A DNA stretch of 64,000 bases from Flavobacterium sp. (lineage in GTDB: Bacteria; Bacteroidota; Bacteroidia; Flavobacteriales; Flavobacteriaceae), in contig NZ_CBDIDC010000011.1 in the NCBI RefSeq assembly GCF_965277525.1, forward strand, positions 687,068 through 751,067, given 5' to 3'. Below, one piece after another: positions 1-33,876 of this stretch. Under the pieces are notes generated by a model that was not told the DNA's origin, searched no databases, and saw only the letters and a program-made list of their open reading frames with translations. Position 1 is the first letter of the stretch; each line of letters opens with the position of its first letter. The translations under genes and the position numbers were made by a program.

Positions 1-2
1 AC

Positions 3-383
3 ACATGGATTCAAGGTCCGAATGGAGAAAAAATTACTAATGTAGATGAATTAAATGTAATTTTAAGTAAATACAGTTCTCAATGGAGAGATTTTTATAA
101 AAGTAAAAATGGAAAATTGACATTAGTGATAAAGGGTTGTAATGCAGGGAATGAAGAAGGTGGAGATGGAATAACAAACAAATTAAATGTTGGCAAAAAT
201 TTTACCTACGATAAAAAAGGTCTTACAATAATTGCTGCTAGTGGATTTTACCTAACTTCTCCTAATTTTTTAAGTAGGGTAGGTATCGATTTTGAAGTTG
301 GGGTTAGTAGGTCAAGTTTATTTACCGATGGCACATGGAATGTATATTATAACGGTACTTTAATAAATAAATTTAATGATTAA
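3..383 (+). CDS. 3' end of a larger ORF entering from the left window edge; probable C-terminal toxin domain of a polymorphic toxin
   Basis: The frame of the 117..383 ORF stays open back to nt 3 (TWIQGPNGEKITNVDELNV...), with stop TAA at 381-383. A lipoprotein gene starts 5 nt later, the toxin-immunity layout seen repeatedly further right. No catalytic motif recognised. Confidence 0.4.
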   Translation, partial: TWIQGPNGEKITNVDELNVILSKYSSQWRDFYKSKNGKLTLVIKGCNAGNEEGGDGITNKLNVGKNFTYDKKGLTIIAASGFYLTSPNFLSRVGIDFEVGVSRSSLFTDGTWNVYYNGTLINKFND

Positions 384-388
384 TTAAA

Positions 389-811
389 ATGAAAATAAAA
401 AAGTTATTTAGTTGTGTTTTACTAATTACATTATTTAGCTCATGTAATGATGGAATCTTGAAGGATTCTGAAGTCAAAGAAGCGAAAGCAATTATTATAA
501 AATCTGGAGATAAAAATTTGTATGCAAGTTTATGTATTTACTATTATGAGAAAGGAGAATATGAATCGACACTTCCTTATTCCATGATTATGGCTTATAA
601 ATATAATGATAAGGATGCATACTATAATATTTATAAAGTTATTGTCCAAATTAATAGTAATGGAAATTCAGATTATAAAGCTGTTAAAAAATTAGATAAA
701 AACAGTAAAGAGTTTGCATTGGAGAATTTGACTAAAAGTGCTAATTTAGGTAGTATTAGTGCAAAAAAGGATTTAGAGAAGTACAATTTAAAAGAAAATA
801 TTAAACAATAG
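389..811 (+). CDS. small lipoprotein, putative immunity protein for the upstream toxin domain
   Basis: N-terminal signal peptide ending in a lipobox-like LFSSC. Tightly coupled to the upstream ORF and followed by a terminator hairpin. Confidence 0.5.
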   Translation: MKIKKLFSCVLLITLFSSCNDGILKDSEVKEAKAIIIKSGDKNLYASLCIYYYEKGEYESTLPYSMIMAYKYNDKDAYYNIYKVIVQINSNGNSDYKAVKKLDKNSKEFALENLTKSANLGSISAKKDLEKYNLKENIKQ

Positions 812-866: not shown

Positions 867-960
867 TTTATGAAGTTGCTACATGTTTAGCGAAACAATC
901 TTTGAATTATCAATATTCCCAACCTCTGTCGAGTTTGCCAGTATGAAAATCTTCACTAGC

Positions 961-1058
961 ATTAATTTCCTTGAAAACTAGAGCATTTCCAAACTTTTCA
1001 TTATTCTCTGGAAGAGTTCTTCAAAGGAATTGATATTCCTAACTCAAAAAGAAAGTAA
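961..1058 (+). pseudogene. decayed 3' remnant of an XRE-family HTH gene, a paralog of 10100..10363
   Basis: 975-1058 translates to KLEHFQTFHYSLEEFFKGIDIPNSKRK*, matching ...KICRVLEISLEEFFKGIDLPKSKIKS* of the intact gene. Upstream similarity (INFLEN vs ANFELK) lies in another frame and is broken by stops. Confidence 0.5.
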
Positions 1059-1077
1059 TAATCAATCATATAAATAA

Positions 1078-1118: not shown

Positions 1119-2753
1119 CTATTTAAGGTTTATCAAATTTTTTAATTTGGAAATTATTGATGCTGTTATCGGCACTCCTTCATAATCAATATACTTTTGC
1201 TGAGTATTCTGTCTATTGAAATAATCCATAAGTTTAGCCATTTCTACGTTTGAGTTATTAATGCCAGAAATGATTTTCAAAATATCTTCAACGTCAAACG
1301 ATAATAGTGGTAATATTTCATACAAGCTTACAATTTCATCCAGCGCATATTTTGGCAATTCCACCGCTACAAGTTCTGGTATCATTTCAACCAAATCCGC
1401 ATCCGTTTCCAATGTCAATGCATCAACCTTAACATTGGTCTTTACACCATGCTCTAATATAATGCGGTTCATGGTCTCAACTACCAAAGCTTCATCCTTG
1501 TCTTCACAAAGCAAAGCATCATATACGTAAAGTACAGAAACGCCTTTAGCGTTCAAATCTCTGATTACATTGCTCATGACACTCACTTCAACGCCAAACA
1601 TCTTTTGAGAGGTAATCTTATGACCGTGTTCGTTTTTATCTCTGTAAATCCTTACCAGCATATCAGTTTCGCATCTTGAATAGTATTCAAAAAGCGGAGA
1701 TTTTCTCATGTCATCCCATTTCATATTGAAAAAACTTAAGTGCTCAACCTTAACTTTTTTGAGCTCAATGTTTGCTTGTTCCGCTACTAATCCGTGTGTG
1801 AGGTAAGTGAGTGAACCATTATACAGCTTGATGGCAATATTGGGATGCAGTGCGCTGTAATCGCATTCTGTAAGCTTTTTACCGTCAATGGTAATCTGCT
1901 CTCGTATCCAAGCTGGCATCAAGGTAAAGCTATCCACGACACGACCACCGCTGTGCATGTCGCCAGCACTTGGAATCATAAAGCCACGAGAAGTCAGGAA
2001 CTCAAAGAGCCTGATATTGTCCTCAACAAAGCTCATGTTATCAGCATCTATCCAGTAATCATTTAGATGCTTGTTTCTCATTGTCAGGATTTTGCCCTTT
2101 TTGGTACAGCGACCCTCCTTGACCAATTGTTTGCCAATAGCCAGCAGTTCTGAGCTGGTTGGCAAATCAATCTTTGGATACATTGCAATGAGGTTCGAGC
2201 AGATTGGATTCTGAAAAGCCTCATGTAACTGCTTATAATACATCTTATTGCGAGTACGGATAATTCCTGTATCCTTGATGAAGTACTCGACCAGACCCGC
2301 TTTGAGATAAGTCTGGGTCAATCTAAACTTTTTGGACTGCACGCCAGCTTGATAGCTGTTATCAACTTCAACAAATGCGCCTTTTATTGTTCCAGCAGTA
2401 AGCACATCAATTATTTTAGTATAGATAAAGGTATTGTCAGTATTTCGGCTTTGCTCATGCAGTAAAACTGAATTAAGCGGTTTCCATTTGGAATCTGTAT
2501 AGTAGGTGCTTGCCAGATTAGAAAGGAACACCAGACACTTTTCCACTGCTGTATCAATATTAGGGTCAACAGCTTTAAGCATGGCTTTAGAAACGTATTT
2601 TCGCAGGTTGTACTGGGCTTTCTTTGGTATTAGGATAGAATTTACGTTGGGGAAACGCAGTGCTGATTCTGACAGCTTGTAATCGTTTTGGAGCAATTCT
2701 AAGTCTCCAGTATCGCCAGTAAAGGCAATGTAATCTTCATTTTTGAGGTTCAT
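1119..2753 (-). CDS. 544-aa hypothetical protein with right-hand polymerase palm-like motifs (family A/B DNA-polymerase-like); function unproven
   Basis: Long uninterrupted ORF. Ordered motifs are SGGRVVD (aa 268-274), CDYSALHPNI (297-306), KVEHLSFFN (336-344) and LYVYDALL (408-415). These resemble GGxV / DxxSLYPSI (or DYSQIELR) / KxxxNSxYG / DTDS (or VHDE). Confidence 0.4.
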   Translation of the reverse strand: MNLKNEDYIAFTGDTGDLELLQNDYKLSESALRFPNVNSILIPKKAQYNLRKYVSKAMLKAVDPNIDTAVEKCLVFLSNLASTYYTDSKWKPLNSVLLHEQSRNTDNTFIYTKIIDVLTAGTIKGAFVEVDNSYQAGVQSKKFRLTQTYLKAGLVEYFIKDTGIIRTRNKMYYKQLHEAFQNPICSNLIAMYPKIDLPTSSELLAIGKQLVKEGRCTKKGKILTMRNKHLNDYWIDADNMSFVEDNIRLFEFLTSRGFMIPSAGDMHSGGRVVDSFTLMPAWIREQITIDGKKLTECDYSALHPNIAIKLYNGSLTYLTHGLVAEQANIELKKVKVEHLSFFNMKWDDMRKSPLFEYYSRCETDMLVRIYRDKNEHGHKITSQKMFGVEVSVMSNVIRDLNAKGVSVLYVYDALLCEDKDEALVVETMNRIILEHGVKTNVKVDALTLETDADLVEMIPELVAVELPKYALDEIVSLYEILPLLSFDVEDILKIISGINNSNVEMAKLMDYFNRQNTQQKYIDYEGVPITASIISKLKNLINLK

Positions 2754-3887: not shown

Positions 3888-4484
3888 GTGAAACTTAAAT
3901 CAAGCAAAATGGCATTAAAAGGACAAAAGACAACGAGTGATTTTTTAGAGTGGGACAAGATGCAGACTATCGTTTTGAAACTGGAGCGTGATAATGATTT
4001 GAAATTTGCGCTACTTATTGCAACGGGTTCTTACATTGGTCTTAGAATTTCAGACCTGCTTCAACTTAGATGGAATCAGGTTTTGAATCAGGATTATTTC
4101 ACGATTATCGAGAAGAAAACCAAGAAGACCCGCAAAATAACCATCAACCCAGAATTACAGATTATCCTGAACCGTTTGTTTGTTCAGCTCCAAGCCAATG
4201 AAAATGACTTGATGTTTGTGAACCGATTTGGCGATAAGCCGTTCAGTATCCAATATGTGAACAGCAAACTCAAAGACATTTTTGCTAAATACAAGGTAAG
4301 AGGTCAGTACTCCAGCCACTTTATGCGCAAAACACTTGGACGCAGAGTTTGGGAAGTGAACAAGTACAGTGACCAAGCATTATTGTTATTATCTCAACTA
4401 TTTAACCATTCTAGTGTTTCTACAACAAAAATTTACTTGGGTATTAGAGAGCAGGAAATCAGTAACTTATATCTTAGCGTGTAA
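3888..4484 (+). CDS. minimal tyrosine recombinase (catalytic domain only, 198 aa)
   Basis: The full catalytic set is visible: GLRISDL (Arg I), HFMRKT (HxxR), FNHSS (His) and TTKIYLG (Tyr). Only ~45 aa precede the catalytic domain. GTG start. Confidence 0.7.
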   Translation: MKLKSSKMALKGQKTTSDFLEWDKMQTIVLKLERDNDLKFALLIATGSYIGLRISDLLQLRWNQVLNQDYFTIIEKKTKKTRKITINPELQIILNRLFVQLQANENDLMFVNRFGDKPFSIQYVNSKLKDIFAKYKVRGQYSSHFMRKTLGRRVWEVNKYSDQALLLLSQLFNHSSVSTTKIYLGIREQEISNLYLSV

Positions 4485-4546
4485 AATATAGTGTTGTATT
4501 TGCGTAAATAAAGTGAAAATATCTTGTGTAATTGAAAAATATTTGT

Positions 4547-4554
4547 TACATTTG
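4547..4554 (+). promoter_or_regulatory. Bacteroidota-type -7 box (TAcaTTTG) for the 4581 gene
   Basis: tacatttg lies 27 nt upstream of the ATG, with a TTG at 4524-4526 at about the expected -33 spacing. Confidence 0.3.
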
Positions 4555-4580
4555 CAGTGTAGAATTGAAAATACAACAAT

Positions 4581-5324
4581 ATGGATACTCAACTTAAGAA
4601 TTGGACAAGCAAAGCTTTAGTGTTTTTTGGAATGTGGCTCTGGAGAGAAAAGGAATATGGGCATGCGATGTTGTGTTTGCACGGTCCGCAATTGGGATTA
4701 AAAATAGGAACCCAATTAAATATTACTTGGAACGATGTAATTAATACCGAAGATGGCTTACGCCAAAATGAAGTAAACTTAAGGGATAAAGAAGCACATG
4801 TTCGAGATATTAGTAATTTCTTTGGGCAATTACTTGAGATGGCATACTATGAGCTATCAATAGAGTCATTAATTAAATCTGCTGATGATTCTATTTATTT
4901 GAATTACAAGACTGGAAAGCCATTGACCTCTTCAACCCTTAATCGTGAATTACAGGCTCATGTCAAAAGATTTGAATCTGAAATCAAAAACAGGACAGGT
5001 CTTATATTGGATTATAAGCCGTTAAAAACAAATGCTTTCGAGATAGCTTGGGCAATGGACATGGTCAAAAAATATAACTATTCCAAACAGGTTTTCATTG
5101 CTGTATCAAATTTTATGGGACATAGGACTTTGAAAGATACCATACAGCTATTGGAACTAGAACCTGTCGAAAAAATTGAATTTGATTTTGATAATGTGTC
5201 TGACATACGTGAATTTGTTGATTTCAATACGTTCGACTTCAGAAAAAACTTAAAGAAATTTCTGGATTTCAAAGGCTATATTGACACAGATGGTCAATGG
5301 TACATACCACAATACTTAAAATAA
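4581..5324 (+). CDS. integrase-like protein with degenerate catalytic residues (probable inactive recombinase paralog)
   Basis: GLKIGTQLNITWNDV aligns with the GLRIsDLlxLxWxxV box, but Lys replaces Arg I. MGHRTLKDTIQLL resembles the LGHxxxxTTxxY box but has no Tyr. No HxxR is seen. Confidence 0.4.
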   Translation: MDTQLKNWTSKALVFFGMWLWREKEYGHAMLCLHGPQLGLKIGTQLNITWNDVINTEDGLRQNEVNLRDKEAHVRDISNFFGQLLEMAYYELSIESLIKSADDSIYLNYKTGKPLTSSTLNRELQAHVKRFESEIKNRTGLILDYKPLKTNAFEIAWAMDMVKKYNYSKQVFIAVSNFMGHRTLKDTIQLLELEPVEKIEFDFDNVSDIREFVDFNTFDFRKNLKKFLDFKGYIDTDGQWYIPQYLK

Positions 5325-5419
5325 ATTAGTTTTTTTTAACGGATTATTTATTCGGTGCAATACCCGAAGCAGGATTCTTATGCCCAAAAATTACGTGTTT
5401 AACCCAAAAATTAAAGCTT

Positions 5420-5983
5420 ATGCAAAACTTAGAATCGCTGTTCAAGTCTTTTGAAACTGGTATCAGGAGCGTAAAAGCGACCAAGCCGAAAGACTATCTC
5501 AATAAGATAGGTCTGGATTATGCGGAACTGAGAATAGGCTTTAATTCAGGACAGTTTCATCACAATAAAAGCCAAGGAGTCAAAGATGATTTTGAAGCTT
5601 TGGGAGTGCTTAAAAAGAGCGATGCGGGTGTAAGAAAGGAAGACCTGACAGCTTATACCGTTTTTGGAAGATACGGACTGATTTTTCCATTGTTGAGTAA
5701 GAAAAACGAGATTGTAAACTATTTCGCTTTACGGTTTGATTTGGATGCCCCTAAGGAAGAATACCTCAACAGCGAAGGCATTTATCCAGCTTATCCAAAT
5801 CCTCTGACTAAAAGGCTCTATATCGTGCCGACAGTTATTGACTGTGCAAGCCTGATGCAGTCCAAAGCACTGGAGAATAGGGATGCCGTGATTGCACTGC
5901 ACGACGGAGCGTTACTGCCTCAGCATCTGGAAGCTATTAAAACCCTGCACGAATTGGAAGAAATAATAATCATTAAACGTTAA
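5420..5983 (+). CDS. Toprim-like (degenerate) domain protein, possible primase-associated subunit
   Basis: The C-terminal LYIVPTVIDCASL ... AVIALHDGALLPQHLEAI resembles the Toprim E...DxD strand pattern, with the acidic residues partly replaced. A 4-nt gap separates it from the downstream P-loop gene. Confidence 0.3.
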   Translation: MQNLESLFKSFETGIRSVKATKPKDYLNKIGLDYAELRIGFNSGQFHHNKSQGVKDDFEALGVLKKSDAGVRKEDLTAYTVFGRYGLIFPLLSKKNEIVNYFALRFDLDAPKEEYLNSEGIYPAYPNPLTKRLYIVPTVIDCASLMQSKALENRDAVIALHDGALLPQHLEAIKTLHELEEIIIIKR

Positions 5984-5987
5984 GCAC

Positions 5988-7667
5988 ATGCAAAATATAA
6001 GAACACAAATACAAAATATAAGACCAGAACTGCCCGTAAGCATGATTCAGCTCCCTGAGGGTCACAGCATGAATGATATGTGGATAAACTACGGAACCGA
6101 TGGAATTCTGGAGCTTTTACAGAATCCAGAAGCAGAAAAAGCAGTCCAGTCACTTGAAATTCATAACGATTACAAAATCAGCTATAAAGGAAAAACAGGA
6201 ACATTTTATGCCATTGGAAGTCTGCCGATGGATTTGGGGAACCTTAGAATTTCACTACAGATTGTTGAAAAGGAGAGCCAGAAGAAACATCGAGTGAAAA
6301 TCGACCTGTTTGATTTTACCAGTGTTGAGAACCAATGCAGGGAACTCAGCGAGAAACAAGGTTTTGACGGTAATTTGCTTGAAGCTGATTTGAAGCAATT
6401 CACAGACCTGTTGGAAGACTACAGAGAAATAATCTTCAACGCTGAAATGAACCCCGTAACCGACCAATTTTCAGAAAAGGAACTTACGCCCCAAGCATAT
6501 GAAAAAGCGATAGAATTCCTCTCTAAGCCACGTGTTTTAGAACATGTAGATAAACTGCTGGGACAAAGCGGAATTGTTGGAGAAGAAGACAACAGGCTTT
6601 TATTGTTTGTACTGGCGTCCAGCTACAAAATGCCATATCTGATGCATGGACTCGTACAGGGAAGTTCAGGAGAAGGCAAGTCACACCTCATCAACGCTAT
6701 AGCAGACTGCATGCCACAGGAAGATGTAATGAACATGACCAGAATTACCAGCAAATCGCTTTATCATTACAGAGATAAAGAGCTGATGAACAAACTTATC
6801 ATTGTTCAGGATTTTGACGGATTGGATGAAGAAGCGCAATTTGCATTCAGAGAAATGCAGACAGCTAAGTTTCTGACCAGTTCCACGGTGGTTAAGGATA
6901 TGCAAGGCAATACCAGAGGAAAGATGAAAACGGTACAGTCACATTTTGCCAGTCTTATCGCTACTACAAGAGCAGAGGTCTATTATGACAATATGAGCCG
7001 TTCGGTAATCTTGGGAGTAGATGAGAGTCTGGAGCAGACACTTCGCATCATCAAGGCGCAGAATCTTAAAAACACTGGTCTCAGTAGTACCGAGAGCGAA
7101 CAGCAGGCAAAACAGCTACTTAGAAATTGTATGAGAGTTTTAAAGAGTTATGAAGTGGTTAATCCCTTTGCCGATAAGCTTATGTTACCGCTGGAGGCTA
7201 AAATGCTCCGAAGATTAAACAGCCAGTTTCAAAATTTTGTATCCCAGATAGCCATTTTAAATCAGTATCAACGAAAAAAAGATGATAAAGGAAGACTCAT
7301 CGCTACTGAAGAAGATGTAAGAAAAGCCGTTGAGATATTCTTTAGTTCCATCATTATCAAAGTAGATGAACTCGATAAAAGTACAAGACAGTTTTTTGAA
7401 AATCTCAAAGGATTTGTCAGAAGCCAGCCAAACGGAACAACATACCGATTCACAACCCGTGAGATACGGCAAGAGCTCAATATCAGCAAAACATCGGCTT
7501 TCAAATACATGCAGACCCTGCAGGAATTGGAATATATACAAGCCGTAGAAGGTTCGCCAAACAAAGGTTTTAAGTATGTAATCAGCTACTGGGACAATAT
7601 GGAAAAGCTGAAAGCCAAAATAAAGACAAACATGGCAATGCAGTTAGACCAGTTGAAAATCAGTTAA
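5988..7667 (+). CDS. P-loop NTPase, putative replicative helicase or primase-helicase C-terminal (SF3/D5-like) protein
   Basis: Walker A GSSGEGKS, Walker B LIIVQDFDGLDE, and a C-terminal winged-helix-like tail. This context is typical of plasmid and phage replication modules. Confidence 0.55.
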   Translation: MQNIRTQIQNIRPELPVSMIQLPEGHSMNDMWINYGTDGILELLQNPEAEKAVQSLEIHNDYKISYKGKTGTFYAIGSLPMDLGNLRISLQIVEKESQKKHRVKIDLFDFTSVENQCRELSEKQGFDGNLLEADLKQFTDLLEDYREIIFNAEMNPVTDQFSEKELTPQAYEKAIEFLSKPRVLEHVDKLLGQSGIVGEEDNRLLLFVLASSYKMPYLMHGLVQGSSGEGKSHLINAIADCMPQEDVMNMTRITSKSLYHYRDKELMNKLIIVQDFDGLDEEAQFAFREMQTAKFLTSSTVVKDMQGNTRGKMKTVQSHFASLIATTRAEVYYDNMSRSVILGVDESLEQTLRIIKAQNLKNTGLSSTESEQQAKQLLRNCMRVLKSYEVVNPFADKLMLPLEAKMLRRLNSQFQNFVSQIAILNQYQRKKDDKGRLIATEEDVRKAVEIFFSSIIIKVDELDKSTRQFFENLKGFVRSQPNGTTYRFTTREIRQELNISKTSAFKYMQTLQELEYIQAVEGSPNKGFKYVISYWDNMEKLKAKIKTNMAMQLDQLKIS

Positions 7668-7777
7668 AAGAACACGTGAAGCCCTGTAATTACAATTGAT
7701 ATAACGCCAGTGTTCACAGTTTTGTAAAGTGCGCCTAAGGAACATTTACAGATGATGATTCTAAAACCAGAGAAAAG

Positions 7778-8695
7778 ATGAAAAAAACAATACAGACCCC
7801 TGCATTTCAAAACCTTTTAAATGAGTTTGACAGCTATGTAAAAGTGAAGAATTATAAACAGGGAAAAGGCACAATGTACCAGAATGCCGTTTCGGAATTC
7901 CTTATCTGGCTGGAAGCATCTGGAATTACCGCTATCAAAAGCGTAACAGGTAAAGAATCAGTAAGTTATTTTGAATATCTGATAAAAAGACCCAAACACC
8001 GAGGAAACGGAACACTGGCAGGAAAGACCATAAAATTTCATCTGTTTGCTTTAGGGCTCTTTGTTTTGAATCTGCTGGAGAACAGGCATATTGAAAACGC
8101 ATATTACATTCCAAGCTATTCAGGAGAAAATGGAAAAGCCCGAAATGCCCTGAGCGTTGATGAAATCAGGAATATATATAAGCATTGTGTAAGTGATTTA
8201 CAGCGGGCTTTGTTATCAGTTGCTTACGGATGCGGGCTTCGAAGGTCGGAAATTACAGCTTTGAATGTAAGGGATATACAGCTGTCAAAAGGTATTTTAA
8301 TTGTTAGGAACGGAAAAGGAAGCAAAAGACGTGAGGTTCCTATGAGTGATATGGTCGTTGAATATCTCAGAAAATACATAACTGAAGAACGTTACCAGAA
8401 AGTAATAAGCAAAGATTTAATACAGGATGCACTTTTTATCCACGATAACGGAAAACAGATGAATGGCGAATACCTCAACAATATGCTAAAGAAAATAATT
8501 GAACAAACCAATGATTATCAGCTTATACAGAAAGAGATAACGCTTCACTGCCTCAGACACAGCATTGCCAATCATTTAATGGAAAAGAACGCAGGAATAG
8601 ATTTTATACGTGGATTTTTAGGTCATTCGGGAATCAATACAACCTATATCTATGCGGTTCGGAACAAAAAACGAAAACCAGTAACAACCTTTTAA
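7778..8695 (+). CDS. tyrosine recombinase (XerC/D-like integrase)
   Basis: N-terminal SAM-like domain, then GLRRSEITALNVRDI (Arg I), HCLRHS (HxxR) and LGHSGINTTYIYA (His...Tyr). Confidence 0.85.
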   Translation: MKKTIQTPAFQNLLNEFDSYVKVKNYKQGKGTMYQNAVSEFLIWLEASGITAIKSVTGKESVSYFEYLIKRPKHRGNGTLAGKTIKFHLFALGLFVLNLLENRHIENAYYIPSYSGENGKARNALSVDEIRNIYKHCVSDLQRALLSVAYGCGLRRSEITALNVRDIQLSKGILIVRNGKGSKRREVPMSDMVVEYLRKYITEERYQKVISKDLIQDALFIHDNGKQMNGEYLNNMLKKIIEQTNDYQLIQKEITLHCLRHSIANHLMEKNAGIDFIRGFLGHSGINTTYIYAVRNKKRKPVTTF

Positions 8696-8706
8696 GCAAT
8701 CAGCCT

Positions 8707-9573
8707 ATGACCAAATTAACAATTGAAAATTTCCTGCTCCAACATTACAGCATACAGACCGTAAAGAGTTATTTATTTGCTATAAACCATTTTTTAAAAC
8801 GGAACCCCAAAGCTAAACGTTACAAATACAGGAACATCGTGCAGTATATGGAAGAAATCAGCCAAGAACAACCCAATGGAAAATATCGAGTTGTCATTTT
8901 ATCAGCAATCAAAAAATATTATGATTATCTGGTTATGAGCGGATACAGAACAGACCATCCGTGCAGGAAGCTCAATATCAAGGTTAACAGCAATCAGGCT
9001 GTTCAGGTTCAGGATTTGTTTAGCTCAGAAGAGCTTGAGCTTCTCTTGACACGTGAGAATCGATACGAGAATTTGGATACCAGAAACAACGTTCTTTTGA
9101 ATCTGCTGATTTACCAAGGTTTAACCAGTGACGAAATCATAAAATTGAATGTTCAGGACATTGATTTGGACGCAGGAACAATTTATATCAAAGCATCCAG
9201 TAATTTGAGCAGACGCAAATTATCATTGTTAGCTAAACAAATATTGCTATTTTCCAAATACATCACCGAAGTCAGACCCAAAATGCTCAGAGGAGCAACC
9301 GACAAACTGATTATCGGCAAACTGGGCAAGCCTATTACAGTTAACAGTATCCATGCAATGATTGAGCCGTTAAAGCCTTTGTTTCCAGATAAGAACCTCA
9401 ACCCCAGAACTATCCGAATGAGTGTTATTTGCAACTGGCTCAATGAGAAAAAGCTGGCTTTGGAACACGTTCAGGAACTCGCAGGACATAAATGGCCTGG
9501 AACCACAGAGAAGTATATCAAAGCGGACAGCCTGCAACAGCGTGAACTGATAAATAAATACTTTCCGATTTGA
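8707..9573 (+). CDS. tyrosine-recombinase paralog with Arg I replaced (GLTSDE)
   Basis: Same fold pattern as 7778..8695, but GLTSDEIIKLNVQDI has Thr where Arg I is expected. RTIRMS replaces HxLRHS. AGHKWPGTTEKYI keeps His and Tyr. It starts 11 nt after the upstream gene. Confidence 0.65.
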   Translation: MTKLTIENFLLQHYSIQTVKSYLFAINHFLKRNPKAKRYKYRNIVQYMEEISQEQPNGKYRVVILSAIKKYYDYLVMSGYRTDHPCRKLNIKVNSNQAVQVQDLFSSEELELLLTRENRYENLDTRNNVLLNLLIYQGLTSDEIIKLNVQDIDLDAGTIYIKASSNLSRRKLSLLAKQILLFSKYITEVRPKMLRGATDKLIIGKLGKPITVNSIHAMIEPLKPLFPDKNLNPRTIRMSVICNWLNEKKLALEHVQELAGHKWPGTTEKYIKADSLQQRELINKYFPI

Positions 9574-10099: not shown

Positions 10100-10363
10100 A
10101 TGAAAGATTCTACCCAAACAAACAATATAGAAGAACTTAATGCAATTGCATTGAGACTTAAAGAACTGAGAAAAGCAAAAGGATATTCCAATTATGAGCA
10201 TATTGCATTTGCTTTGGAAATGAGCCGTTCAGCTTACTGGAGATTAGAAACTGGAGCTAATTTTGAATTAAAAACACTTATTAAAATTTGTAGAGTGCTG
10301 GAAATTAGCCTTGAAGAGTTTTTTAAAGGAATTGACCTGCCAAAATCAAAGATAAAAAGCTAA
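10100..10363 (+). CDS. XRE-family helix-turn-helix transcriptional regulator
   Basis: LKELRKAKGYSNYEHIAFALEMSRSAYWRLETG is a typical Cro/CI-type HTH. Confidence 0.8.
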   Translation: MKDSTQTNNIEELNAIALRLKELRKAKGYSNYEHIAFALEMSRSAYWRLETGANFELKTLIKICRVLEISLEEFFKGIDLPKSKIKS

Positions 10364-10427
10364 AAAAAATTATAAAACTGTCCTATTTGTATCCCCCGCC
10401 AATACTGGGAACTTTAAAAATTACAAT

Positions 10428-10535: not shown

Positions 10536-10775
10536 TTGAATGTTTCAACCTTCATTGAAAGAATCATTTTTCAATTTGCAAACGATAATAAAATCAACGA
10601 TATGAATAATTTTACATTTTTTTTAGGTTTTATTCTGATAATAACCTCAATGTTTATGGCATTTCCAGAAAGAGCAAGAAAAGCTACTAAATGTCTAATC
10701 CAATTAGTCGGAGCTTTGTTTATCAGTAAAGCATTTCAAGCAATAACAGCTTATTTCAACCGAAATAAACCGTAA
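10536..10775 (+). CDS. small membrane protein (more likely starts at ATG 10602)
   Basis: The track start is TTG. The internal ATG gives MNNFTFFLGFILIITSMFMAF..., with one clear TM helix. Confidence 0.3.
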   Translation: MNVSTFIERIIFQFANDNKINDMNNFTFFLGFILIITSMFMAFPERARKATKCLIQLVGALFISKAFQAITAYFNRNKP

Positions 10776-10819
10776 TGATTATTTTTTATAAATGAAAAAT
10801 ATTACATTTGAATCGCTAG

Positions 10820-11785
10820 GATATAGAGAAAAGGACGTTCTTACTACATTATAGAAACTTTGCAGAACCTTATAAGTATAAGTACAACGGGAAAGAGCTC
10901 CAAGATGAGAGTATTGGCGGGAATCAGCTGAATTGGTATGACATGGAAGCTCGAAATTATATGCCTGACATTGGTCGTTGGGGTAATATGGATAAACTGG
11001 CTGAAAGTTTCTTTGTTTTATCTCCATATAATTTTTCAAATAATAATCCAGTATATTTTTCTGACTCTAGTGGTCTTTCTCCAGATGGACCAAAAGAAGC
11101 AATTGCTTCAACTATTGTAAGAAATGGAAGAGTAATAGAACATCGAGACGATGGCGACCCAGGTATTTATTTAGCTGATTTTGGCTGGCAAGTGGGTGGA
11201 TCGACTCAGGGTTTGTCATTATTAGGTTTTGAAAAACCAGGTGAAACTTATAACGTAGGCGATAGGATTATGTTTGATTTATCTGGTTATGGTACAACAA
11301 GTCAGCCTAAAAGAGCATTAGGTGTAACTTATGCTATTGGTGGTGCTTATGATATAACTGGAGCTTGGGAAGCTTTTTTTACAGAGTTGTTTTCGGAACT
11401 AGGTGATGATTCTCCAGAAACAGCACTTGCATTTGCAGTTGTGACGAAAGGAAAGGTAAAACCAAAACTTGCCGTTAGATTATTAGAAAATTTACCTACC
11501 CAGATTCATCATTTTGCAACAAATAAACATTCAAAATATTCAAAACAAATGGCAAAGATAATAGAGCAATATAATTTAAAATTGAGTGGTTCTTGGAACA
11601 AAGGTGCGTTACCACATTTGGGACGGCACCCGAATGCATATCATGATTTTGTTCTTGAAAGCATGCAAAAAGCTAGTATGGAGGCAGGAAATGACAAAGC
11701 AAAATTCTTAAAATTGTTTGACCAATATGTCAAACAACCCGTTATTGAGAATCCAAATTTATTAAGAAAATCAGGCTGGGAATAA
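10820..11785 (+). CDS. orphan Rhs/YD-repeat C-terminal module: core-end motif plus an HNH/EndoVII (AHH/SHH-like) nuclease toxin domain; 5'-truncated
   Basis: The frame is open from 10820 with no upstream rhs body. It reads YKYKYNGKELQDE...YDMEARNYMPDIGRWGNMD...SPYNFSNNNPVYFSDSSGL (Rhs core end), then IHHFATNKH...LPHLGRHPNAYHDF. The internal ATG at 10943 is the track start. Confidence 0.7.
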   Translation, partial: DIEKRTFLLHYRNFAEPYKYKYNGKELQDESIGGNQLNWYDMEARNYMPDIGRWGNMDKLAESFFVLSPYNFSNNNPVYFSDSSGLSPDGPKEAIASTIVRNGRVIEHRDDGDPGIYLADFGWQVGGSTQGLSLLGFEKPGETYNVGDRIMFDLSGYGTTSQPKRALGVTYAIGGAYDITGAWEAFFTELFSELGDDSPETALAFAVVTKGKVKPKLAVRLLENLPTQIHHFATNKHSKYSKQMAKIIEQYNLKLSGSWNKGALPHLGRHPNAYHDFVLESMQKASMEAGNDKAKFLKLFDQYVKQPVIENPNLLRKSGWE

Positions 11786-12384
11786 TGAGTAAGTATTTTT
11801 TTTTAAGTTGGAAGAATTCAACACAAACAGCAAGTGCAATTTATGAAATCGAACATCAGATTGCACATGAGCTAATCCCTGAATTAGAAGGAAAAGAATC
11901 ACTGCCGTTTAACTTTAATTTAAAACGAATTAGAGAAACAAAAGATGATATAATCATAGATGATAATTTGGATGAATTACAAGAAATTTGGCTGGATTAC
12001 CTACCAAATAGCCTTGCTTGGCCTTTAATGTCCCAAAAATTAAAATTGGTAGTGCAAGAAAACCTTACAGAAAATGAAGGTGTTGACTGGCTTGATTGTA
12101 AAGTTAATTATGGAAATGAAGAAAGAATATATTATATTTTAAGATTCAACAAAATATTGGATGTTTTGGATATGACAGAAACAAGTTTTGTTAGAGGTAC
12201 TGACCATATAATAAGACCAGTTTTTTCATATTCAAAAGTTAGAAATCTTAATATTTTTAGCAAACCAGCATATCAATATTTATGGAGAATTACATCGGGA
12301 CTGTATGTTAGTGAGAAATTAAAAAAAGAAATACAAAAAATGAAATTGACAGGACTTGATTTTTCAAAAGTACGAGTGATTTAA
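11785..12384 (+). CDS. putative cognate immunity protein
   Basis: Its start overlaps the toxin stop (TAATG). The N-terminus and size are similar to the protein that follows the second AHH/SHH-like toxin (25851..26543). Confidence 0.55.
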   Translation: MSKYFFLSWKNSTQTASAIYEIEHQIAHELIPELEGKESLPFNFNLKRIRETKDDIIIDDNLDELQEIWLDYLPNSLAWPLMSQKLKLVVQENLTENEGVDWLDCKVNYGNEERIYYILRFNKILDVLDMTETSFVRGTDHIIRPVFSYSKVRNLNIFSKPAYQYLWRITSGLYVSEKLKKEIQKMKLTGLDFSKVRVI

Positions 12385-13523: not shown

Positions 13524-14264
13524 TTACTCTATTGGTTGTTTTTCTATTTTCTTTTTTCTCATTGATTCTCCCTTTAATTCTATCCGAAGGGCATTGTGAA
13601 CGATTCTGTCTAAAATTGCATCTGCAATGGTTTGTTCTGCAATAACTTCATGCCAGGATTCAACTGGGAGCTGCGAAGCAATAATAGTTGATTTTTTTCC
13701 ATGCCTGTCCTCAATTATCTCCATAAGATCCTGCCTTTTAAAGTTATCTAATGATTGCAGCCCAAAATCATCTAGTATAATGAGGTCCTGCTTTTCTATT
13801 TTATTAATTTCTTTTATGTAAGAGCCGTCAGCTTTAGCCATTTTAAGTTTAGAGAAAAGTTTATTGATATTAAAATACATTACTTTGTAGCCCATCATAC
13901 AGGCTTTATAACCAATTGCTGTAGCTATAAAGCTTTTACCAACACCCGTACTTCCACAGACCAGGATGTTTTGTTTGTTTTTTATAAAATCACAAAACTC
14001 AAGTCTGTTTATTAAGTTTTTATCTACTCCTCTGGAACTGTCAAAATCGATTTCTTCGATAAAAGCTTTATACCTGAACTTGGCAGTATTGATCAATCTT
14101 TCTACTTTTCGATTTTCTCTGTCATCATATTCAGAGTTAATTAAATAAGCAATAAGTTCATCATTTGTGTAATCGATACTACTTGCCTCTAAAGTAGTAT
14201 TAAAGGCTCTGGACATTCCGTAGAGCCTTAACTGTTTCATTTTTTCTAATGTTTGATCATTCAT
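13524..14264 (-). CDS. istB: IS21-family helper ATPase IstB
   Basis: Walker A GSTGVGKS and Walker B DLIILDDFG, DnaA/DnaC-like AAA+. Located downstream of istA. Confidence 0.9.
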   Translation of the reverse strand: MNDQTLEKMKQLRLYGMSRAFNTTLEASSIDYTNDELIAYLINSEYDDRENRKVERLINTAKFRYKAFIEEIDFDSSRGVDKNLINRLEFCDFIKNKQNILVCGSTGVGKSFIATAIGYKACMMGYKVMYFNINKLFSKLKMAKADGSYIKEINKIEKQDLIILDDFGLQSLDNFKRQDLMEIIEDRHGKKSTIIASQLPVESWHEVIAEQTIADAILDRIVHNALRIELKGESMRKKKIEKQPIE

Positions 14265-14286
14265 ATAGTTATTTCATTAATGGTTG

Positions 14287-15876
14287 TTATTTGTAATATT
14301 CCTTGCCTCTAATATTATTATGTTTTGGTATTTCTTTATCTTCAATAGCAGGATCTTCATCAATGAACTCTAATCCTTTCTCCAGGATAGATTTGATGAT
14401 TGGGTAATTTATTTTTTCATAATCCATCGCTCTCTTACAAGCATTGTTTAATCTGTCATTGCCTACTTTATTGGCTAAACTTAACACGCCGGTACAGGAT
14501 TTATAAGATTGCTCGGGATGCTGTTTTTTATCTAATATTTGTATAATAAATGATTTGCAAAATTCTCCAACAGAAGCTCCCCATTGGATAAACCTCTCAG
14601 GATTCCACTCGGCCACAAACTGATGTGATGTGGGCATGTGTTCGTTATTTGTTGTATAAAGATATTTGGAGTAGTCCCTCTGATGACTGGCTATTATGCG
14701 CTGCCCATGATAAATCTCAACGGTAGTCTTACTGTAAATAATCAATACTTTCTTGCCCATATAAATAAAAGGCACGCTATAATAGTGTTTGTCTTTATTG
14801 AGATAAACATGGCTGGATTTATGAACGGTTGCTTTAGCAAAACCTTTGAGCTGATAGGGATTAACAGGTAAAAATGATAGTGCTTCTTTTTCTATCTCAT
14901 TAAACAAATCTAATCTTGAGTATTTTCTGCCTTTAAAAGACATTGTATTATGCTTTTCTAAAAGTGGTAAAATAGCATCATTAAGGGCTTCTATAGTAAA
15001 AAATTCTTCTTTGCGTAAAGGGGCAAAAATTCTGGTATAAATTATTCTTACTGCATTTTCAACCAGAGCCTTATCTTTTGGGTGATAAGCTCTTGTGGGA
15101 AGTATTGTAGTTGCGTAATGAGATGCAAAGTCTAATAAATATTCCGTTACTAAGGGCTCATATTTATCACTCTTTTTAACGGCTGTTCTTAAATTATCCG
15201 TTACAATAGCACTTGGAACACCCTGATAGTAGTCTAGCATTTTTACCAAACTTCCCATAAAGTCTTCTTTGTTTTGAGTCCTGGTAGCTTCTACAAAAGT
15301 AAGTCCGCTTGCTCCCAGTACACTTACAAAAACTTCTACTTCACACACTTCTCCTGTAGACTGGTCAATAACGGATAATTTCTTTCCTGTATAGTCTACA
15401 AAAACTTTATCCCCTGCCTTATGATGCATATGCATAGAGGGTTTGAGTTTGCCTCGCCAATTTTGATAATGGTAGCAAAACTGGGAATAACTGTAGCCAT
15501 TAGGATGATTTTCCCTATACTCTTCCCAGAGCAATTGTCGGGTAACACCAACTCGCTTTAATTCTTTTTCTATCGTGGGAAATAAGGATTCTAAAACTAT
15601 GTTTTTTTCTGGAACAGCTTTTATCTGTCCATCAAAGAGTTCTTCCAGATCTTCATTACTAAGACCTGATAACTCTTGATAGGTAAAAGAATTTTGATGA
15701 AATGATTCAATATATTTCTTTACAGTATTGCGTGATAAGCCTAATTGTCTGCTTATTTGGAGCTTACTTACTCCTTGAGTATATAAACGTAATAATTGCA
15801 AAATGTTTCTCATATCCAGTCGTTTATTTGCCATATCTTTTGTTTTAAAAACAAGTAAGATATTCTTTACAAACAC
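14287..15876 (-). CDS. istA: IS21-family transposase IstA (likely true start MANKRLDMRN at 15834)
   Basis: N-terminal HTH (SRQLGLSRNTVKKY), a DDE core (VFVDYTG..., VTDNLRTAV) and a typical IstA C-terminal domain. Confidence 0.9.
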   Translation of the reverse strand: MFVKNILLVFKTKDMANKRLDMRNILQLLRLYTQGVSKLQISRQLGLSRNTVKKYIESFHQNSFTYQELSGLSNEDLEELFDGQIKAVPEKNIVLESLFPTIEKELKRVGVTRQLLWEEYRENHPNGYSYSQFCYHYQNWRGKLKPSMHMHHKAGDKVFVDYTGKKLSVIDQSTGEVCEVEVFVSVLGASGLTFVEATRTQNKEDFMGSLVKMLDYYQGVPSAIVTDNLRTAVKKSDKYEPLVTEYLLDFASHYATTILPTRAYHPKDKALVENAVRIIYTRIFAPLRKEEFFTIEALNDAILPLLEKHNTMSFKGRKYSRLDLFNEIEKEALSFLPVNPYQLKGFAKATVHKSSHVYLNKDKHYYSVPFIYMGKKVLIIYSKTTVEIYHGQRIIASHQRDYSKYLYTTNNEHMPTSHQFVAEWNPERFIQWGASVGEFCKSFIIQILDKKQHPEQSYKSCTGVLSLANKVGNDRLNNACKRAMDYEKINYPIIKSILEKGLEFIDEDPAIEDKEIPKHNNIRGKEYYK

Positions 15877-20286: not shown

Positions 20287-20447
20287 AACACAGATGTCTA
20301 AATAATTAAGAGATTCAAATATTTAATCTTAGGATATTCCGTGAACAAAAGCTATTTTCGTTAACAGAATTTTGCTCTTTGAATTATTATTCTTTTGGGA
20401 TTTTTAAGCGGAATTGGTTACTATAGAAAAGGTTTGCAGAACCTTAG

Positions 20448-21366
20448 AAGTATAAGTTCCAAGGTCAGGAGCGTCAGGATGATCTATCACTGGCTTGGGA
20501 TAGTTTTAAGTATAGAAACTACGATTACGCTATTGGTAGATTTATGAATGTTGATCCATTAACAGAAAAGTATATGGATTGGAGTCCATATGTTTTTAGT
20601 GGAAATAGAGTAATTGATTCAAGAGAGTTAGAAGGGTTAGAACCAGTAGATGCAGGTAAAATTAAAAATTCAAATATGCTTGTTATAACCGCTAATGGAA
20701 GAGCAGGCGGAATGTATGGTGATGAAATTAAAGGTAATAATACATTGGTTAATAACCTGCCAGAAGGTTATAATAAAGGAGATGATGGTTTATCAATGGT
20801 AGGACAAAGAGGATTTGGTGTAGGAAATGCTACTATTATTAATTATGCTGGCTCTGACAGTGGTATCACTGCTGGTCATATTGCGGAAACTATTGGTAAT
20901 TATAGACAAAACAATCCAGATGGTATGGTTGCTTTAATAGGCCACAGTTTAGGTGGTAAAGATGTTTTAGATGCAGCAAATATTGTGAACAAAAGGCGAT
21001 GTAATAAAAAATAAATCAATTGATTTAATAATAACTATGGAAGCAGCCTCAGCTGATGGTAAAGGATCTGCTTATAGTACCTCTTTAGGTTCTAATGTTG
21101 CGAATGTTGTTAATTTTAATTCTTCAGATTCATCAATGACAGGTGGAGGTGGAAGAACAACAACTGGTTCATCGACAAATATAACATTAGGAAACGGTAC
21201 TAATCATACAAACATGGATAATACTTTAACTCCTTATTTAGCACCAATATTAAATCATATGGGGAAAGGGGTTAACCCAGTTAATTTAATAAACAATATA
21301 AACTTTGAAAAAGCTAAAGTTTTAAATAACGGAGATCTAAAACCTGCAAGTGGAGGCTCTTATTAA
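20448..21366 (+). pseudogene. orphan Rhs-core-end module with an alpha/beta-hydrolase (GHSLGG lipase/esterase-like) toxin domain, split by a frameshift
   Basis: YKFQGQERQDD...YRNYDYAIGRFMNVDPL...SPYVFSGNRVIDSRELEGL, then LIGHSLGG. Frame 1 stops at 21012-21014. The continuing frame (TKGDVIKNKSIDLIITMEAAS...) is open from 20989 to 21366. Confidence 0.55.
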
Positions 21367-22169: not shown

Positions 22170-22751
22170 ATGAAAATAAAATGTAATTTTTGTAATGGTA
22201 AATGCATAAAAAATGGATTTCAATCTAACGGAAATCAACGTTATAAATGTTGTGTTTGTCAAAAGAGACAGCAGTCTGATTATACGTATAATGCGTGTAA
22301 AAGAAGCATTAATCAGGAGATAATTCTATTCACAAAAGAAGGTTTGGGAATAAGAAGTACGGCAAGAATATTGAAAATATCAACGACAACATTATTAAAA
22401 AGAATCGTTTTTATCGCCCGAAATATTACCAAACCAATTATCAGCAGAGGTAAAACTTATGAAGTCGATGAGCTTTGTACTTATATCAGATACAAGAAAA
22501 ATTATATTTGGCTGGTTTATGCATTGGAAAAGAATTCTAAAACTGTCGTAAGCTTTAACGTTGGGAAACGAACTAATAAAACGCTTAACGGTGTTCTGGA
22601 AACTTTAAAATTATCTGACGCTAAAAAAATATTTACGGACAGATTAAAAAACTACAGATATTTGATTGACGAGAAACTGCATTCGGTAAAACGTTTCGGA
22701 ACAAACCACATTGAAAGGAAGAATCTGACACTTAGAACTCATCTGAAATGA
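22170..22751 (+). CDS. IS1-family transposase, interrupted by an in-frame TGA (the frame continues to 22829)
   Basis: N-terminal zinc finger CNFCNGKC...RYKCCVCQKR and an HTH (IRSTARILKISTTTLLK). After TGA 22749-22751 the same frame reads LNRRTICFSKSLVIFTAVLKIYFWI*, the usual C-terminus of this family. Confidence 0.75.
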   Translation: MKIKCNFCNGKCIKNGFQSNGNQRYKCCVCQKRQQSDYTYNACKRSINQEIILFTKEGLGIRSTARILKISTTTLLKRIVFIARNITKPIISRGKTYEVDELCTYIRYKKNYIWLVYALEKNSKTVVSFNVGKRTNKTLNGVLETLKLSDAKKIFTDRLKNYRYLIDEKLHSVKRFGTNHIERKNLTLRTHLK

Positions 22752-24832: not shown

Positions 24833-25845
24833 GACCTGCTAAGAACCCAATAACAAACGTTCTTGAAATTGTCGAAGAGAATAATTATTATCCTTTTGGT
24901 TTAAAACATGAAAGATATAATACGGATAATAAGCAGGTAGGATATAATTATAAGTACAACGGAAAAGAACTGCAAGACGAGAGTATCGGGGGCTTTCAGC
25001 TGAATTGGTATGACATGGAAGCTCGAAATTATATGCCGGATATTGGGCGTTGGGGAAGTATAGATGAACTTGCAGAAAGTTTTTTTAATTTTTCGCCCTA
25101 TGATTTCTCAAATAATAATCCTGTATTTTTCTCAGATCCGAGTGGTTTAGCTCCAGAAAATCCTAATACTAACTATTTGGCATCAACTGTTGTAAATAGT
25201 AGAGGAAAAGTACTAGATTATAAAAATGATGGAGATACAAATATTTATTTAGCTGATGATAATTGGAAAGTGGGAAGTTCTAGAACAGGATTGCCTATAA
25301 TAGGACATGAGAAGGCAGGAGCTACATATTATCCTGGACAACAAATTAATATTAATTTTTTAACTGGAGTTGGGGAAGTTTCTAGGATAGCTAATGGCGC
25401 AGCAACTCCAATAGGTGGGGCTTTCGATATTTTAGGATTTTGGGATATGCTATCTCAAACAACTGAAGGTGATTCAGATTTACTGGCATTACTTTTCATA
25501 ATGAGAGGTAAGGGAGTTAATTCAACAAATATAGGAATCAATAACTCACATCATTTAGTGCCTAAAGCTGTTTTTAAAGCACTTAAAAGAGATTTAAAAG
25601 CTTTAATGAAATTAGGCAGTAAGAAAAACTTAATTAATTTAACGACACCTTTTCATGGTAATCACCCACAATATAGTGCATATGTTAAAAATGTGCTTAC
25701 GGAACTTAAAAATGCTGGTTCACTAAGTAAGGCATCAATCGAAGTTTTACAAAATGATTTAAGATCAATAATAAGTAATGCAGCAAAAGAATATGATAAA
25801 ACAGGAAAAAATTTGAATGAATATTTTAGACAGTTAAATAAATAG
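24823..25845 (+). CDS. orphan Rhs C-terminal module with an HNH/EndoVII (SHH/AHH-type) nuclease toxin domain; 5'-truncated and mosaic
   Basis: AKNPITNVLEIVEENNYYPFGLKHERY...YDMEARNYMPDIGRWGSID...SPYDFSNNNPVFFSDPSGL, then NNSHHLVPK...PFHGNHPQYSAYV. There is no rhs body upstream. Confidence 0.7.
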   Translation, partial: KKRRPAKNPITNVLEIVEENNYYPFGLKHERYNTDNKQVGYNYKYNGKELQDESIGGFQLNWYDMEARNYMPDIGRWGSIDELAESFFNFSPYDFSNNNPVFFSDPSGLAPENPNTNYLASTVVNSRGKVLDYKNDGDTNIYLADDNWKVGSSRTGLPIIGHEKAGATYYPGQQININFLTGVGEVSRIANGAATPIGGAFDILGFWDMLSQTTEGDSDLLALLFIMRGKGVNSTNIGINNSHHLVPKAVFKALKRDLKALMKLGSKKNLINLTTPFHGNHPQYSAYVKNVLTELKNAGSLSKASIEVLQNDLRSIISNAAKEYDKTGKNLNEYFRQLNK

Positions 25846-33808: not shown

Positions 33809-33876
33809 CTTTCATTTTCATTGTTATCAAACTCTTTTTTCCTTTCAGTGTCACTGATCCCGAGTTCCGAGGATAG

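Follow-up and report, generated by a model that had tools for sequence, protein, structure and literature searches.

Why should one bacterial locus carry four tyrosine-recombinase-like genes, arranged as two tandem pairs in which a canonical enzyme stands beside a catalytically degenerate paralogue? The question is raised by a 64,000-nucleotide stretch of DNA from Flavobacterium sp. (RefSeq assembly GCF_965277525.1, contig NZ_CBDIDC010000011.1, positions 687,068 to 751,067 of the forward strand), referred to here as the window. An original prediction had described the two pairs, placed them around a replication module and suggested heteromeric recombinases or regulatory pseudo-enzymes. We found all four recombinase-like open reading frames (ORFs) on the + strand, and two further genes, P3 and P4, lie between the pairs as had been described:

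3888..4484, + strand: P1, a small tyrosine recombinase consisting of the catalytic domain only, 198 residues from a GTG, likely start 3909 (Pfam, alignment to XerA)
4581..5324, + strand: P2, a conserved pseudo-recombinase of 247 residues with a tyrosine-recombinase fold and no nucleophile (profile and structure comparison)
5420..5983, + strand: P3, a Toprim-type primase remnant (weak match to phrog_6444)
5988..7667, + strand: P4, a P-loop helicase-like protein with a C-terminal winged helix (Pfam)
7778..8695, + strand: P5, a canonical Xer-like tyrosine recombinase with core-binding and catalytic domains (Pfam, NCBIfam, alignment)
8707..9573, + strand: P6, a conserved paralogue in which Arg I, beta-hairpin Lys and His I are lost and Arg II, His II and Tyr retained

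With moderate confidence, and from comparison of the locus with its relatives, we propose that P5 and P6 may together form the integrase of a widespread Bacteroidota element that inserts into the 3′ core end of rhs genes and delivers toxin tips. The target of recombination, an rhs toxin gene with its orphan tips, had been overlooked earlier. Polymorphic toxins, Rhs among them, exchange their tips and leave arrays of orphan tips and immunity genes behind. The accessible parts of the published accounts speak of displacement or of recombination with cassettes and name no dedicated machinery. If our proposal is true, a tip, an immunity gene, a replication module and an rhs-aimed recombinase would together provide a concrete, testable mechanism of tip exchange, and would account for identical tips behind unrelated Rhs shells.

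Rhs core-end junctions and the proposed element

Relatives were collected in a scan with P4, one genome per species, from which the best 80 of the 87 stretches encoding a relative were kept, giving 79 loci (cited by L numbers). The features of the window on which the argument turns, with one from the 20 kb upstream that were also covered, are as follows:

471 nt before window base 1: attL-like junction core in the main rhs gene (junction sequence)
1..383, + strand: 3′ end (toxin tip) of a 1200-residue Rhs/YD-repeat protein, the main rhs; ORF L091:16784 reads through to 383, and the gene starts 3.2 kb before the window
389..811, + strand: presumed immunity gene of the main rhs tip, 140 residues (ORF)
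905..1060, + strand: decayed 3′ remnant of a helix-turn-helix (HTH) gene (direct repeat with 10310-10376)
1119..2753, − strand: 544-residue gene with no Pfam match, accessory backbone, common to L008, L041 and L066
9574..9601, + strand: terminator-like hairpin, 28 nt, directly 3′ of P6
9616..9987, − strand: 123-residue ORF common to L036, L037 and L041
10100..10363, + strand: Cro/C1-type HTH regulator (Pfam)
10536..10775, + strand: 79-residue membrane-like ORF
10780..10870, + strand: conserved non-coding arm on the element side, with ..GGACGTTCTTA.. and ..TTTGCAGAACC
10871..10887, + strand: junction core TATAAGTATAAGTACAA, codons Y-K-Y-K-Y-N of the Rhs core end; proposed crossover, attR-like
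10871..11785, + strand: orphan Rhs core end fused to an AHH-nuclease toxin tip
11785..12384, + strand: Imm11-family immunity gene of the displaced tip
20445..20461, + strand: second arm-type orphan junction (tttgcagaacct|TAGAAGTATAAGTTCCA) with no backbone adjacent

Rhs junctions were searched in all loci with the first 77 residues of the window orphan as query. Matches on the minus strand, matches starting after query residue 9 and matches at most 120 nt from the start of a locus were dropped uncounted, and 88 junctions from the loci were kept together with the window's own. Among the 66 P6 copies whose downstream sequence extends for 3 kb or more (13 shorter-flank copies without a match were set aside), 55 are followed within 5 kb by a + strand Rhs core-end junction, at a median distance of 1081 nt and a minimum of 194 nt; the window's whole genome holds just 11 Rhs core-end motifs in 6.25 Mb. 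Junctions behind a P6 have in-frame stops in the 35 codons upstream in 55 of 62 cases, and 15 of the 27 junctions without a preceding P6 are open, that is, fused to rhs. Within the Flavobacterium group the orphan always starts at one codon, directly behind the conserved non-coding arm, and the consensus of arm and core is TTTgcAAAaCCtTATAAGTATAAGTACAAcGG.

Two comparisons point to the position of the proposed exchange. The backbones of the window and L008 are 95-98% identical, and on the right this identity runs through ...CCTTATAAGTATAAGTAC and gives way to unrelated sequence, which places the breakpoint at the core TATAAGTATAAGTAC, the same core that fixes the orphan junction of the window at 10871-10887. 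In a three-way alignment, the main rhs joins rhs-coding sequence to its own tip (tipW), the L036 orphan joins the arm to a tipW-like sequence that is ~95% identical to tipW through the aligned part, and the window orphan joins the arm to the AHH tip; all three junctions change partner within one stretch of ~20 nt. The block of tip and immunity gene (1-871), which includes a terminator hairpin at 824-869 on the 3′ side of the presumed immunity gene, recurs behind arm and core in L036 at 88% identity. On these alignments, the partner switching is the pattern of attL, attP and attR sites, and the core is present as direct repeats at -471 and 10871, as in a site-specific element.

Two plasmids, both complete records annotated in RefSeq, carry what appears to be a minimal form of the same unit. 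Aureibacter tunicatorum pAT2 has the order RHS, hypothetical gene, HTH gene (− strand), CHC2 primase, small ORF, two recombinases and short RHS, after which the hypothetical, HTH and primase genes are repeated; an Aureispira plasmid has this order without the small ORF, and its second recombinase is annotated as a hypothetical protein. The tandem units measure 8.2 kb in pAT2 and 7.7 kb in Aureispira and are 99.96% and 100% identical, respectively. Each starts within the rhs reading frame, the pAT2 boundary being TAT(CGT/GGG)|TATGGATTTAACGG, and neither has a recombinase besides the pair, of which the second member shows the degenerate pattern of P6. Full-length rhs stands directly 5′ of the unit in the window, in L008 and in both plasmids.

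We suggest that the region could be read as one integrative element of ~11.3 kb that is bounded by the two cores, at -471 and at 10871-10887, and is made up of tip, immunity gene, accessory genes, primase-helicase, P5, P6 and arm. Such an element would excise as a circle with an attP of the form arm+core::tip, P3/P4 would replicate the circle, and its recombination with the core of a resident rhs gene would be the work of P5/P6. On an asymmetric site, the two proteins would most likely work together as a heterotetramer resembling that of XerC/XerD. The arm (..TTTGCAGAACC) would form half of this site, with the centre and the other half formed by the DNA for the Rhs motif Y-K-Y-K-Y-N-G-K-E. Integration would fuse the host Rhs shell to the incoming tip and immunity gene (window 1-811) and would displace the former tip, the AHH toxin with Imm11 (10871-12384), in the downstream direction, where it would remain as an orphan behind the arm. 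The arm may also provide a promoter. Repeated integrations would then give rise to tandem units and orphan arrays.

An integron-like or rAID-like platform would read the same junctions differently, with a resident P3-P6 backbone that stays in place while P5/P6 capture tip-immunity cassettes, each with its own arm and core, downstream of P6. Cargo does diverge right after the P6 stop even between cores 95% identical, the arm-type orphan at 20445 stands alone without a backbone, and the GC content falls from 0.38-0.40 in the core to 0.26-0.32 downstream. Published systems point the same way: in the available text, rAID-1 arrays lie behind a XerD-like recombinase in Bacteroidales (10.1101/471110) and polyimmunity loci adjoin XerC/D genes (PMC3482391). 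We nevertheless consider a platform improbable, because what is repeated in pAT2 and Aureispira is the whole unit (tip, immunity gene, HTH gene, primase and both recombinases), whole modules also stand in tandem in several chromosomes, and the full-length rhs lies directly before the unit.

The displacement of rhs C termini in Enterobacteriaceae is reportedly due to homologous recombination, and P5/P6 might serve only the multimer resolution of a plasmid-like replicon, in the manner of Xer, while insertion into rhs proceeds by RecA-dependent homologous recombination across the core-end DNA. This would agree with the best NCBIfam scores of both proteins, which are to XerC/XerD/XerA models, with a module that always includes a primase-helicase and is found on two plasmids, and with rhs core-end DNA that is conserved some 60 nt past the core; C-terminal displacement is also an established account of rhs diversification in Enterobacteriaceae, as far as the accessible part of PMC2935791 goes. 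Against it stand the change of lineage within ~20 nt in the window products, the L008 breakpoint at the core and the minimal elements, which have no other integrase. Homologous recombination has a minimum requirement for length of identity, and since the tips to the right of the core are strongly different, too little identity is left for it to be efficient. We regard this explanation as improbable too.

Several results weigh against the proposed integrative element itself. Eleven of the 66 P6 copies lack an Rhs junction in the 5 kb that follow them, and an upstream junction was found in just 25 of 64 module copies within the 5′ flank of up to 7 kb covered per copy. The backbones of the window and L008 are nearly identical, yet the tips on their left sides differ; the link between tip and backbone is thus unstable, and homologous exchange between tandem backbones must be invoked. 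The backbone that the window has in common with L008 and L041 shows no core-like site at its left end (window ~1073). Relative to the other clades, the boundary of the Aureispira unit is shifted ~50 codons upstream in rhs, which means that the site is not universal, and the conserved TTTG of the arm is equally explicable as a promoter element. Among 14 short contigs, none had the terminal overlap of a circle, and the assembled contigs of 4 of 24 sequencing runs (all Logan contigs) yielded no reliable excision joint.

Searches for other kinds of site were also made. Joints of L092 positions 2491-2581 to 13870-13936 in one metagenome were considered as empty sites and rejected; with flanks of 26-38 nt on the shorter side and 85% likeness, they were read as other rhs genes. 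The ends of L064 gave no convincing direct repeats, and the Flavobacterium loci have no conserved att site directly 3′ of the P6 stop, the first 28 nt there being the terminator hairpin in the window. In L008 (F. pectinovorum, 11539-12078), the sequence past the core shifts frame into a 179-residue HNH-like toxin without the Rhs core-end motif, as might result from a deletion, or from an aberrant exchange, precisely at the core.

The P5/P6 pair and its primase-helicase

P5 had been called fully canonical, and R155, K183, H257, R260, H283 and Y292 are all in place, completing the R-K-H-R-H/W-Y active-site set. The full set is present in 78 of 78 P5 sequences, with Lys replaced by Arg in 3. Where an ORF matched P5 as well as P6, the higher identity decided its family. 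The F. zepuense orthologue of P5 (L066:8750-9658) was excluded from the P5 alignment; this reference has one internal stop, reflecting either a broken copy or the choice of ORF boundary.

For P6 the residues named earlier stood, with two corrections. T140 does occupy the Arg I position (GLTSDE against GLRVSE of XerD), R234 occupies His I, and H261 and Y270 are retained; R237 of RTIRMS, however, is Arg II and is retained, and the beta-hairpin Lys is lost as well (S168 against P5 K183). This pattern comes from alignment of P6 to XerD and, by profile, to the P5 family. P6 thus has three of the six active-site residues (R237, H261 and Y270 intact; T140, S168 and R234 changed), and it scores 56.6 bits against Pfam PF00589, compared with 117.4 for P5 and a gathering cut-off of 27.1 bits. 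Across the family, Arg I is missing in 76 of 77 sequences (T46, A11, Q6, H5, K4, S3, V1, R1), and Arg II, His II and Tyr are retained in 76, 74 and 76 of them, respectively; His I is variable. In the profile alignment to the P5 family, the position of the beta-hairpin Lys is Asn in 60 of 77 and Asn or Ser in 65 of 77.

P6 might be a functionless duplicate in decay, together with P2, and the missing catalytic residues of both would be what such a history leaves behind. We consider this almost certainly wrong. The two genes of pair 2 lie side by side in 74 loci, 76 sequences related to P6 are intact, and in 56 of the 74 loci P6 has a higher identity than P5 (median difference +5.9 points), from which we conclude that P6 is under selection and no relic; the 109 homologues of P2 are intact down to 36% identity and share invariant motifs. 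The possibility that the degenerate copies are pseudogenes without conservation elsewhere, raised with the original prediction, thus does not apply.

A heteromer is the best reading of pair 2, as had been suggested. P5 is taken here as the catalytic subunit, and P6 as a partner in specificity and synapsis that is probably non-cleaving, a role toward which we lean slightly. A prediction of the P5+P6 complex gave weak support, with a score of 0.60 against 0.00 for the best of 3 controls, an agreement between runs in at least 82% of contacts and a predicted local distance difference test (pLDDT) value of at least 81 for the partner. Of 157 solved complexes 116 reach the mark applied, and of 215 mismatched pairs 2 do so; scores of 0.60 or less are rare in the former (18 of 157) and include both of these mismatches. 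The result for P5+P6 may reflect likeness to solved recombinase complexes. In Cre, Lys and Tyr are the only residues strictly needed for >5% of wild-type activity (PMC2943603, from the accessible part of the text), and because P6 lacks the Lys, a non-cleaving role is the more likely one. If P6 does not cleave, the Holliday junction would be resolved by replication or by host enzymes. The near-invariance of Tyr, Arg II and His II in P6 weighs against this role, being hard to square with a protein that never does chemistry.

It is possible, but in our view somewhat unlikely, that P6 is instead fully active with a rewired site, as in IntDOT, and that P5 and P6 each exchange one pair of strands like XerC/XerD. 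In favor of an active P6 are the retained Tyr270, Arg237 and His261, an R170 present in 77 of 77 sequences and a basic residue at position 169 in 57 of 77. Some members of the IntCTnDOT subgroup also lack the first Arg, and the CTnDOT integrase, in which another Arg further downstream takes over its function, shows that loss of this residue need not abolish the activity of a Bacteroidota tyrosine recombinase (PMC8138268). P6 is a simple two-domain protein whose losses extend to Lys and His I, unlike IntDOT, which carries an arm-binding domain and keeps the other catalytic residues, Lys and His I among them. Against an active P6, three of the six catalytic positions are changed together, and the Lys on which Cre depends is replaced by Asn or Ser in most of the family. 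R170 was considered as a compensating Arg of the IntDOT kind and rejected; it aligns with the equally invariant R185 of P5 and is therefore a feature of the family and not a new residue. No passage on Arg I substitution was found in the accessible text of PMC2034462 and PMC2817482.

Whichever role it has, the pair is a natural, conserved case of an active enzyme whose partner has lost half of its active site and kept the nucleophile. Relatives of P6 in phage records were limited to 4 weak matches, in Listeria and Staphylococcus phages, at 23-29% identity.

The pair is constantly associated with replication genes. P3 and P4 are fused into one protein of 881-913 residues (CHC2 zinc finger, Toprim, P-loop region) in L064, L068, L077 and Chitinophagaceae-like loci, which identifies the module as a DnaG-type primase-helicase followed by the recombinase pair, and the order P3-P4-P5-P6 is constant wherever loci extend far enough. 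Its hosts are Flavobacterium, Chryseobacterium, Mucilaginibacter, Chitinophagaceae, Bacteroidales and others in Bacteroidota. A bolder version of our proposal is that Rhs diversification in Bacteroidota is driven by dedicated self-replicating elements that integrate site-specifically at one rhs core-end codon by means of an obligate heteromer, in which only P5 would cleave, P6 would restrict the reaction to a single strand exchange and the element's own primase-helicase would replicate through the Holliday junction. Single strand exchange with obligatory replication would account for the primase-helicase and the recombinase pair always occurring together; we think it unlikely that this version holds in full.

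Behind P6 the loci are varied. Non-Flavobacterium clades (L077, L064, L069, L093) have 0.4-1.1 kb of conserved non-coding DNA 3′ of P6, with repeated TTTCAATTGAAA palindromes and a ..TTTTTTCGTCATGCTTTTTGT.. box, and a ACGTTCTT box recurs in the arms of two clades; these palindromes and boxes may be origin, operator or accessory sites. In one Flavobacterium locus (L019:10747-15552), a 1601-residue protein with RuvC_III and HNH domains, resembling Cas9, is encoded directly 3′ of P6, and other loci have Dnd, Fic, PRTase-CE/NADAR, Gp49 or TseH genes there, which indicates that the cargo at this position is defence and toxin genes in general.

The patchy pair P1/P2

The two pairs are not the equivalents that they had been taken for. 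By + strand tblastn with a query coverage of at least 70%, P1 was found in 19 of the 79 module loci and P2 in 3, making pair 1 patchy, and we conclude that it is accessory cargo of one Flavobacteriaceae sub-lineage. The complete catalytic set of P1 was confirmed by alignment to XerA (R53, K80, H144, R147, H174, Y183). Its orthologues begin at the ATG at 3909, giving 191 residues, and P1 matches Pfam Phage_integrase (E 4e-17, 62.9 bits) without an N-terminal core-binding domain. The protein is 88-94% identical in 18 loci, including loci in which P4 is ~77% identical and the DNA of the P1 block is just ~74% identical; this difference between protein and DNA places P1 under strong constraint. No convincing inverted repeats, as might hint at an invertase, were found flanking P1. 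Its gene context suggests that P1 most likely resolves multimers of the circular form.

P2 is as degenerate as had been noted, with K41 at Arg I, N151..E154 at HxxR and L190 at the Tyr position, so that of the six active-site residues it keeps one, H181. Its match to PF00589 (E 0.078, 13.2 bits) is under the cut-off, and no match to PDB was obtained by sequence. Profile-profile comparison by hhalign joined the P2 family to the P1 family (97.4% probability, E 1e-11, 154 columns) and gave no match to the P5 family. An AlphaFold2 model of P2 (pLDDT 85.8) had only tyrosine recombinases as its top PDB matches in Foldseek, with template modelling scores of 0.43-0.52, among them XerA (E 8.6e-5), Cre, Tn1549 Int and lambda Int. 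By fold and homology, P2 belongs to the tyrosine recombinase superfamily. Among its 109 homologues K41 and H181 are invariant and L190 is nearly so, and all are unnamed apart from one labelled "Tyr recombinase domain-containing".

A search for the P2 family gave 11 P2 loci, 2 of them on contigs already in the P4-based set. The gene 5′ of P2 is P1 in 7 and a Pfam Resolvase in 3 (L085, L086, L090); in L082 a 576-residue protein without a Pfam match lies 5′ of it. In most of the 11 loci, P2 is just 5′ of a primase or helicase gene. A heteromer had been proposed for this pair as well, and the occurrence of P2 behind a serine resolvase in place of P1 argues against a mixed P1/P2 tetramer. P2 instead accompanies a small site-specific recombinase of either chemistry, and we read it from this context as a nucleophile-less DNA-binding accessory for the tyrosine or serine recombinase encoded upstream. 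That the roles proposed for P1 and P2 have gene context as their basis counts against them in weighing the whole. Used beside tyrosine and serine recombinases alike, P2 is a second derivative, one that has lost the nucleophile altogether. At the P2 position of L003 (5749-6285) and L007 (5748-6248) we also observed a 179-residue ORF, ~25% identical to both P1 and P2 and without a Pfam match, which may be an intermediate form of the pseudo-recombinase.

Known systems and neighbouring genes

Like XerC/XerD at dif, P5 and P6 are paralogous two-domain tyrosine recombinases encoded side by side and expected on the two halves of an asymmetric site. They differ in that P6 lacks Arg I, Lys and His I, that both are element-borne, always behind a primase-helicase and with a target within a toxin gene, and that their scores fall far below the equivalog cut-offs (P5 131.7 against 335.15 for XerC; P6 93.9 against 329.6 for XerD). 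Scores against the integron-integrase model of NCBIfam were 94.1 for P5 and 40.3 for P6, with a cut-off of 265.

By description, the region is also akin to rAID-1 (10.1101/471110, Ross et al.; PMC12247911) and the polyimmunity loci with XerC/D genes (PMC3482391, Zhang et al. 2012), which are also from Bacteroidota and in which, according to the available text, a Xer-like recombinase is followed by co-oriented, low-GC toxin remnants and immunity genes with repeated junctions. A comparable downstream region was found here, with at least two co-oriented + strand toxin/immunity genes, a lower GC content and repeated arm-type junctions at 10871 and 20445. The rAID-1 recombinase is defined by an identity of at least 44% to BF9343_RS08045 (10.1101/471110, available text), and rAID-1 is set apart in the accessible descriptions by its single recombinase; no primase-helicase, degenerate partner, fixed in-frame rhs junction or full-length rhs fusion is described there. 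The region also resembles Rhs C-terminal displacement and orphan arrays, in which the available part of Jackson et al. 2009 (PMC2935791) has a new tip arriving at the core end while the old tip and immunity gene are left downstream. Here, unlike in that account, the tip would travel on a self-replicating element with its own recombinases, and the orphan lies at a fixed codon behind a non-rhs arm.

Several tandem tyrosine recombinase genes on a mobile element are also known from Tn554 (TnpA/TnpB) and recombinase-in-trio elements. Both TnpA and TnpB are needed in Tn554, and the Tn554 and trio partners carry catalytic motifs, unlike P6 (PMC3414803, accessible portion). In the window the pairs are split by the primase-helicase, no third recombinase follows P6 and there is no TnpC; of the NCBIfam models for Tn554 and trio proteins, only GmtY was matched, at E 0.014-0.043 and far under its cut-off. 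Tycheposons target tRNA genes. They and pipolins are self-replicating integrative elements that, by such description as is available, resemble the present element in joining one or more tyrosine recombinases to a primase, helicase or polymerase module, with defence or toxin cargo that varies. No tRNA gene was found as a target in the window or in 38 loci, and the window has no match to an Rfam family. A literature search that left supplements aside found no description of an rhs-targeting element with a primase-helicase and a tyrosine-recombinase pair.

Further mobile DNA lies downstream of the element. The orphan toxin/immunity array holds an IS21 pair on the − strand (13524-15876; IstB 13524-14264, IstA-like 14287-15876) and an IS1-like transposase fragment (22170-22751, + strand). 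Two more orphan Rhs fragments, at 23380-24279 and 24943-25845, the second with an AHH tip, have ~90 nt of rhs core before the motif and no arm, and look like products of homologous rearrangement. A second mobile unit (32157-40459) comprises a relaxase (32157-33428, −), a MobC/NikA-like gene (33413-33808, −), an ApeA-type HEPN gene (34847-36256), an HTH gene (36346-36738, −) and a large serine recombinase (38915-40459); ordinary chromosomal genes begin at ~41.4 kb.

Four metagenome-assembled genomes labelled Bifidobacterium breve, Rhizobium sp., Kosmotogaceae and Variovorax paradoxus (L012, L039, L060, L082) contain a Flavobacterium-like module or P2 with 53-83% identity to the window proteins, and misbinning or contamination is likely. 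On the other side of the element, directly 5′ of the main rhs, L091:11000-16753 encodes a 1917-residue protein with 12 DUF5977 repeats, preceded by a protein with a type IX secretion system (T9SS) C-terminal sorting domain, and the two may form the delivery context of the Rhs toxin.

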